A DNA stretch of 64,000 nt from Escherichia coli. Lineage in GTDB: Bacteria; Pseudomonadota; Gammaproteobacteria; Enterobacterales; Enterobacteriaceae. Made by a program: the position numbers and the translations under genes. The notes under the pieces are model-generated. The model searched no databases and was not told where the DNA came from. It saw only the letters and a list, made by a program, of their open reading frames with translations. How positions within the stretch are numbered: position 1 is the first letter of the stretch; every line of letters begins with the position of its first letter. Location: NCBI RefSeq assembly GCF_050920415.1, contig NZ_CP169309.1; one strand, written 5' to 3'. Positions 22,621 to 23,787 of the stretch are shown piece by piece.

Positions 22621-23787
22621 ATGCGGATTATTTTTCTACGTAAGGAGTATTTATCTTTACTCCCGTCAATGATTGCGTCTCTCTTCTCCACTAATGGTAT
22701 CGCAGCGGTTATTGATTCATGCCAGGGATATGATATCAAAGCGAGCTGTCAGGCCAGCAGGCAAAGCCTTTCAGGCATTACGCAGGACTGGAGCATCGCC
22801 GATGGGCAATGGGTGATTTTTTCGGGTATGGCCAATAATGCCAGCGGTGGCGCCGTATTTTTGCAACAAGGAGCGGAGTTTTCTCTATCGCCAGAAAATG
22901 AAACTGGAATGACTCTGTTTGCCAATAATACTGTCTCAGGAGAATATAATAATGGCGGGGCAATATTTGCTAAAGAAAACTCAACGATAAATATTGAGAA
23001 TGTTATTTTCGACAGTAATGTTGCTGGGGGCTATGGCGGAGCAATCTATTCTGCCGGTACCAACGATACTGGTGTCGCCGATTTACGTATCACTAACGCC
23101 GTATTTCTCAATAACATCGCTAATGACGGCAAAGGCGGTGCACTTTATACCATCAATAATGATGTCTATTTAAGTGATGATGTTTTTAATAATAACCAGG
23201 CATATACATCAACAAGTTACAGTGATGGCGATGGCGGCGCAATCGATATCACTGATAATAATAGCGACAGCAAGCATCCATCAGGTTATACGATAATAAA
23301 TAACACCGCCTTTACAAATAACACTGCCGAAGGTTATTGCGGGGCAATTTATACCAATAGCGCGACGGCTTCCTATCTTATTGATATTTCAGTTGATGAC
23401 AGCGACAGCCAGAACAACGGTGTTTTAGTGGATCAGAACAACAGCGCAGCAGGCTATGGCGATGCATCATCGGCGGTGGCGGGAGGCTTCATGTTCATTG
23501 ATTCAAGTCAGGTCAGATTTGACATCGCGGCCAATAAAACTCTGGTCATCGGCAACATGAGTAACGATGGTGAGATCGATTCCATTGCCGGAAACAGTAG
23601 CTAAGTGTTGCTGTTCATAGCACGCCAGCATTAGATCTGAATTATTATCACGAGCCCCATTCGGTGGAAATTGAAGACGGTGGCAGCAATATCAGCGACG
23701 ATGCGGCTAAGCAGCGTGGCGTGGCAGAAAGGGAGTAATGATTTTGCCCAGACGGCAGGGTTTTTATCGATGACGATAAAATGGTAA
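22621..23787 (+). pseudogene. yfaL: yfaL autotransporter adhesin, disrupted: N-terminal 327-codon ORF plus frameshifted C-terminal remnant, passenger/barrel interior missing
   Basis: ORF 22621..23604 encodes a signal peptide and N-terminal passenger repeats (GGAIY-type) and stops after ...DSIAGNSS. Downstream, one frame reads ...LDLNYYHEPHSVEIEDGGSNISDDAAKQRG and another reads VAWQKGSNDFAQTAGFLSMTIKW* (stop 23785-23787), which look like the extreme C-terminus of an autotransporter barrel. The whole locus is about 1.17 kb, far too short for an intact autotransporter. Confidence 0.7.

Follow-up and report, generated by a model that had tools for sequence, protein, structure and literature searches.

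YfaL, also known as EhaC (b2233), is an adhesin of the AIDA-I type and belongs to the type Va autotransporters. Intact yfaL measures 3,753 nt (K-12) to 3,765 nt. In the K-12 protein, Pfam places three PATR repeats (residues ~328–357, 559–580 and 663–690), the AC_1 autochaperone (PF18883, ~794–904), a proline-rich linker after AC_1, and the autotransporter beta-domain (PF03797, ~989–1228). In type Va secretion, a passenger lacking autochaperone or barrel is not displayed at the cell surface, and unfolded passengers undergo periplasmic degradation. A yfaL/ehaC match is present in 5,425 of 5,426 complete E. coli genomes. PMC7251025 describes yfaL in all EAEC isolates of that study and, citing Roux et al. 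2005, enhanced biofilm formation upon yfaL overexpression in K-12. Decayed alleles also exist: the protein collection commonly contains truncated ORFs of 180–560 aa (P0013, P0014), for example the Shigella flexneri fragments named [quoted passage not shown], and frameshifted C-terminal yfaL fragments occur there as well. Lineage-specific autotransporter decay is described for other genera, such as Brucella (PMC8111173) and Campylobacter (PMC7168839).

The locus analyzed here spans positions 22621–23787 of a 64,000-nt stretch of Escherichia coli DNA (contig NZ_CP169309.1), referred to as the window. With ypaB/nrdA upstream and ubiG/gyrA downstream, an order shared with K-12 and four other genomes that harbor intact yfaL, gene-order comparison identifies it as the orthologous yfaL position. 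Codons 1–324, 1172–1208 and 1227–1250 of YfaL/EhaC have homologous, colinear counterparts at this locus; unlike the described gene, however, it lacks 69% of the sequence, is interrupted by a premature TAA, changes frame twice and scores below the cut-off of the family model. We consider it a non-functional, vertically inherited yfaL (ehaC) pseudogene of an AIDA-I-type adhesin, with a probability of roughly 0.93. Pseudogene status as such is already known from RefSeq: PGAP applies the pseudogene flag “incomplete; missing C-terminus” to 22621–23592 in the identical record NZ_CP169399.1, and for strain WL297 it additionally labels the 3′ remnant as a frameshifted autotransporter barrel fragment. 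The locus and its neighbors comprise the following features:

19642–21927, minus strand: nrdA (window gene order)
22054–22197: ypaB (window gene order)
22198–22620, plus strand: AT-rich leader/intergenic region between ypaB and yfaL, kept from the intact locus
22621–23591, plus strand: yfaL nt 1–971 (codons 1–324), colinear
22621–23604, plus strand: 327-codon residual ORF ending in TAA, encoding a putative Sec-type signal peptide and ~300 residues from the start of the YfaL passenger (ORF list, NF007285)
23591/23592, plus strand: junction 1a, where yfaL nt 972–1337 (366 nt, 122 codons) are deleted in frame (alignments)
23592–23609, plus strand: 18-nt island from yfaL nt 1338–1355 in the N-terminal frame (six-allele scan)
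23602–23604, plus strand: TAA ending the residual ORF, a nonsense mutation of the Tyr450 codon (codon comparison)
23609/23610, plus strand: junction 1b, frameshifting deletion of yfaL nt 1356–3513 (blastn and MAFFT, frame arithmetic)
23610–23719, plus strand: remnant A, yfaL codons 1172–1208, last beta-barrel strands, in a frame other than that of the N-terminal ORF (translation, NF007285)
23713–23719, plus strand: junction 2, 62-nt deletion (K-12 codons ~1209–1226 plus 8 nt)
23713–23787, plus strand: remnant B, yfaL codons 1227–1250 and the original TAA stop, in the N-terminal frame (translation, NF007285)
23788–23847, no strand: yfaL–ubiG spacer, 60 nt (blast segments, alignment, gene coordinates)
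23848–24570, minus strand: ubiG (window gene order)
24717–27344: gyrA (window gene order)

The 5′ part of the gene is well preserved. Residues 1–325 of the ORF align to positions 1–325 of NF007285 (E 2.8e-192), the NCBIfam equivalog model for YfaL/EhaC with 1,250 positions and a curated whole-protein cut-off of 1,459 bits, in line with an earlier note on this DNA that had read 22621–23604 as the N-terminal part of yfaL followed by a stop. The whole-protein score of the ORF is 641.5 bits, far under that cut-off. Its N-terminus (MRIIFLRKEYLSLLPSMIASLFSTNGIAAV) aligns to that of K-12 YfaL and displays, by inspection, a basic n-region, a hydrophobic core and an A-A-type cleavage motif. The passenger residues are of the POMP/Chlam_PMP repeat type: Pfam gives only weak Chlam_PMP matches in the ORF, and TIGR01376 matches as well. 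At the nucleotide level, blastn yielded 87.7–89.5% identity to three intact genes over codons 1–324. Differences from R32_14_1F in this 5′ part fall mostly on third codon positions (26/21/58 at first, second and third positions), and this excess indicates that the 5′ differences accumulated under constraint on the gene, before its inactivation. The leader in front of the ORF, correctly described before as AT-rich, has 29% G+C compared with 51% for the window and is colinear with the matching region of intact loci (query 1–1392 aligned to R32_14_1F segment 4501–5892). Promoter-like matches in the leader did not exceed the shuffled expectation, and Rfam, promoter and terminator scans of the region yielded nothing above chance.

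Junctions were mapped by aligning the locus, a check that had been proposed before, to K-12, R32_14_1F (L002), EC42405, 2020CK-00188 and a near-intact divergent Logan allele (L014). The first junction lies at 23591/23592, where the left parental site reads ...TCTATTGCTGG/TACC, the right parental site ...ACCATTGCGCA/AAAC and the window ...TCCATTGCCGG/AAAC; both parental sites share an ATTGC that ends 3 nt before the junction. The following 18 nt (AAACAGTAGCTAAGTGTT) match yfaL nt 1338–1355 (codons 446–452, ...QNGSYVL), which in each of the six scanned alleles was the top-scoring site, colinear and on the plus strand (14–15 of 18 positions identical). Together with the preceding ATTGC, 20–22 of 29 positions are identical, compared with a background of at most 17 elsewhere. 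Allowing up to three mismatches, a search with the island returned a single match in L014, precisely at the nt 1338–1355 site, with 0.00 expected. The island therefore represents surviving yfaL codons 446–452, so that the first lesion is a 366-nt in-frame deletion and the large gap consists of two deletions. The junction that had been proposed just after the DSIAG codons near 23595 is thus real, at 23591/23592, but the accompanying picture of a single deletion is not, because the island splits the gap in two.

Two other origins of the island were considered. An interpretation as junk or filler between junctions was rejected in view of the colinear yfaL match in every allele examined. An insertion sequence (IS) scar or a local inverted template was also rejected, since the window contains no second copy of the island on either strand and no IS or transposase ORF is found in 22000–24000.

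The stop codon of the residual ORF lies within the island. Codons read AAC AGT AGC TAA GTG TTG in the window and AAC GGC AGC TAC GTG CTG in K-12, hence N-S-S-stop-V-L instead of the N-G-S-Y-V-L of intact alleles, in which the tyrosine codon is TAC or TAT. The ORF does stop where it had been said to stop, and the cause is a Tyr-to-TAA nonsense codon, not frame run-out.

Downstream of the island, the second deletion (junction 1b) removes 2,158 nt in K-12 numbering or 2,164 nt in R32_14_1F. It is followed by two peptides in two frames that the earlier note had suspected to be the C-terminus of an autotransporter; alignment shows them to be homologous to the yfaL C-terminus, and both match that of K-12. 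The first peptide, AVHSTPALDLNYYHEPHSVEIEDGGSNISDDAAKQRG, is encoded by 23610–23720 (codon starts divisible by 3), matches NF007285 positions 1172–1208 (E 1e-13) and derives from a segment 82.7–86.4% identical to three intact alleles aligned locally. The second, SVAWQKGSNDFAQTAGFLSMTIKW-stop, matches NF007285 positions 1227–1250. Between them lies the “second small indel” suspected in the remnant, which the alignments and two overlapping blast segments (1411–1520 and 1514–1644) define as a 62-nt deletion. As 2,158 and 62 add up to a multiple of 3, remnant B returns to the frame of the N-terminal ORF. Beyond the stop, the 60-nt spacer to ubiG is shorter than in K-12 (127 nt) or R32_14_1F (139 nt), and one palindromic, REP-like unit of ~75 nt is absent.

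In total, the coding sequence is disrupted by three deletions and one nonsense codon, and its frame changes twice. It retains 1,167 of about 3,753 nt and lacks 2,586 nt relative to K-12, which falls within the 2.5–2.8 kb estimated earlier. All three PATR repeats, AC_1 and the linker lie in the deleted nt 972–1337 and 1356–3513. Of the 12-stranded beta-barrel, only codons 1172–1208 and 1227–1250 are left, in two frames and downstream of the stop. With autochaperone, linker and nearly all of the barrel gone, the product is unable to work as an autotransporter. The microhomology that had been sought at the junctions is scarce: exact matches amount to at most 1 nt at both large deletions, and junction 2 lies inside a 7-nt imperfect overlap (AGCGTGG; right parent 7/7, left parent 5/7). 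Given junctions with little or no microhomology, we infer illegitimate recombination or replication slippage, and the lesions may have originated in one complex template-switch event or in successive deletions. Recombination between passenger repeats was rejected as a deletion mechanism, as the junction partners are non-homologous. IS activity was likewise rejected, with no IS sequence near the junctions.

The same junctions occur in five of the 5,426 complete E. coli genomes, namely MFDS1022581, N96, 2013C-4282, WL297 and 2017-02-2CC, which originate from Korea, Tibet, the USA, Wenling in China and Viet Nam (four countries). In the assembly collection (NCBI, ENA, Logan), 49 contigs and 64 blocks contain the exact 327-residue ORF, E. 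coli STEC_7v among them. Other decayed yfaL alleles, in contrast, carry independent lesions; the present junction set was found only in the five complete genomes and in drafts such as STEC_7v. This distribution bears on the possibility that the assembly collapsed a repetitive passenger and that the real genome harbors a full-length yfaL, which had been named as the outcome that would overturn the pseudogene reading. The passenger is indeed repetitive (weak Chlam_PMP matches and PATR repeats). However, the junctions do not connect repeats but lead from codon 324 to 446 and from codon 452 to barrel codon 1172, and carriers have gained further independent lesions. Identical junctions in five independently assembled genomes, together with the ORF on 49 contigs, exclude misassembly, and we assign an artefact a negligible probability.

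Decay of the locus continues among the carriers. In 2013C-4282, WL297 and 2017-02-2CC, an additional 11-bp deletion at 23231–23241 (ATGGCGGCGCA, within GATGGCGATGGCGGCGCA), absent from the window, shifts the frame and cuts the ORF to 207 codons. The same 90% protein clusters also contain fragments of 74–311 aa encoded by further strains, TW10509 and M863 among them. We weighed these findings against the idea that the truncated ORF is a retained functional gene, whose Sec-exported product, a periplasmic or released beta-helix fragment, is kept by selection. The start codon, the putative signal peptide and the leader in front of them are preserved, and the 327 codons are unbroken in the window, in two of the five complete-genome carriers (MFDS1022581 and N96) and in many draft contigs from several drafts. 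Divergence from intact alleles is moreover concentrated at third codon positions, but this bias dates from before the deletions. Among carriers, amino-acid changing substitutions (R2W, V152A, T177N) are about as frequent as silent ones (E9E, L99L). The ORF ends at a nonsense codon inside a leftover island, and shorter fragments abound; from what is established for type Va secretion, its product, which lacks the autochaperone and barrel, would not be displayed at the surface. With the 11-bp frameshift in three of five carriers, the leftover ORF is not conserved, and retained function appears improbable. The earlier proposal that the N-terminal fragment could still yield a secreted or periplasmic product is thus unsupported, as three of five carriers are frameshifted and the parts for outer-membrane translocation are deleted.

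Our preferred reading is the inactivation of a divergent yfaL allele, whose coding sequence carries four lesions: the 366-nt deletion, the Tyr-to-TAA change, the ~2.16-kb frameshift deletion and the 62-nt deletion. Together these account for the loss of the three PATR repeats, autochaperone and linker, and of the barrel they spare only the last ~60 codons. The ORF product, if expressed, would be exported by Sec to the periplasm, would have no access to the surface and would presumably be degraded, and the locus would be decaying neutrally.

Carriers are 100% identical over the 3′ 310 nt (23592–23900, all junctions included), compared with 13–35 substitutions in the 2-kb flanks. The 5′ part is mosaic: 2017-02-2CC displays ~60 clustered substitutions between 22413 and 22997 and is near-identical after 23000, and an ENA-derived protein (P0001) differs at residues ~89–160 and has the same DSIAGNSS end. 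Judged from these sequence patterns, recombination has shuffled the dead yfaL allele among carriers. Identity of the 3′ segment in all five carriers and the mosaic 5′ parts of 2017-02-2CC and P0001, indicating recombination around a shared null allele, could also be taken as a sign that loss of YfaL is adaptive, for instance as an escape from immunity or from surface-binding predators, and that the null allele spread by homologous recombination. The identical deletion allele is found in clade I backgrounds with 1–2% flank differences and has mosaic 5′ ends, a pattern that could mean that the null allele is favored. Yet only five of 5,426 complete genomes carry the allele, the clade I relatives EC42405 and 2020CK-00188 keep an intact gene, and mosaics of this kind are commonplace in E. 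coli, arising by recombination with no need for selection. We consider adaptive loss unlikely, with only marginally more credit than a retained functional ORF. The broader claim, that a null allele was favored and passed on by recombination or that an exported 324-residue beta-helix stub has a periplasmic role, is similarly hard to credit.

The genomic background of the window points to a particular lineage. Over the 20 kb downstream (24000–44000), identity reaches at least 98.6% to only about 15 of the 5,426 complete genomes, including 2013C-4282 and EC42405; the remaining complete genomes show at most 97.1% (e.g. 96.5% for E2348/69). Within the first ~52 kb of the window, the portions also present in strain 2017-02-2CC are 98.2–98.9% identical to it. 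PMC10100065 lists 2013C-4282 and EC42405 as Escherichia cryptic clade I, and PMC7716201 assigns TW10509 to clade I. As the close set includes the clade I strains 2013C-4282 and EC42405, the window strain is probably a member of Escherichia cryptic clade I as well, on the strength of these sequence identities, and the deletion allele would be a polymorphism in the clade. The intact yfaL alleles retained by EC42405 and 2020CK-00188 are quite different.

An intact copy of the carrier allele was not found in the complete-genome searches, in which the closest non-carrier match to the 5′ part was 93.4% identical and that to the 3′ part (23592–23850) 86.8%. An exact 38-nt remnant pattern had no match in JGI metagenomes, allele-specific peptide words returned only two distant, irrelevant matches among genome contigs, and two protein searches for the allele yielded short fragments and no full-length YfaL. 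The Logan allele L014, though it revealed where the island comes from, is no closer overall. Since no intact copy was found, the parental sites and microhomologies described above are those of related alleles. The surviving sequence represents an unusually divergent allele, 82–93% identical to intact ones, with the 3′ remnant diverging by 13–18% from every intact allele. Codon-position differences in this remnant (3/5/7 over about 180 nt) are too few to separate drift from older divergence, and its divergence may reflect old allelic diversity of a surface-protein gene or drift after inactivation.

Further differences between the window and related genomes lie outside yfaL. The window is nearly identical to MFDS1022581 except that it has no IS2 in glpQ: the gene is intact here (ORF 14178–15311, plus strand), and in MFDS1022581 it is split by a ~1.33-kb IS2 at the point corresponding to window 14559–14564. 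In the glpQ–inaA interval (~15531–17410), a 368-codon ORF is located on the minus strand (15531–16637); the matching stretch of MFDS1022581 is annotated as a frameshifted hypothetical protein, and a LysR-family fragment there is likewise annotated, as a pseudogene. The nrdB–nrdA spacer (19578–19641) measures about 64 nt and contains only one REP-like palindrome. In MFDS1022581 the spacer is ~81 nt longer, and in K-12, where it includes yoaM, it extends to 233 nt, suggesting REP copy-number variation inside the nrdAB operon. The atoSCDAEB/atoB region (window ~36770–44180) is missing from 2017-02-2CC, where yfaP is directly followed by rcsC. Rfam identified MicF RNA upstream of ompC (50959–51052, minus strand) and three REP-derived naRNA4 matches (47221–47297; 59068–59150 and 59180–59263 on the minus strand), which are expected features of this chromosomal region.

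With regard to the biology of the strain, the locus is a case of ordinary gene decay, and its relevance lies mainly in correct annotation. A strain carrying it is unable to make the YfaL/EhaC adhesin and should be scored as yfaL absent or non-functional in virulence- or biofilm-gene typing, although PCR or BLAST against the yfaL 5′ end would still be positive in carrier strains. The junctions could mark a subgroup of Escherichia cryptic clade I, and the locus provides an example of multi-step autotransporter decay.
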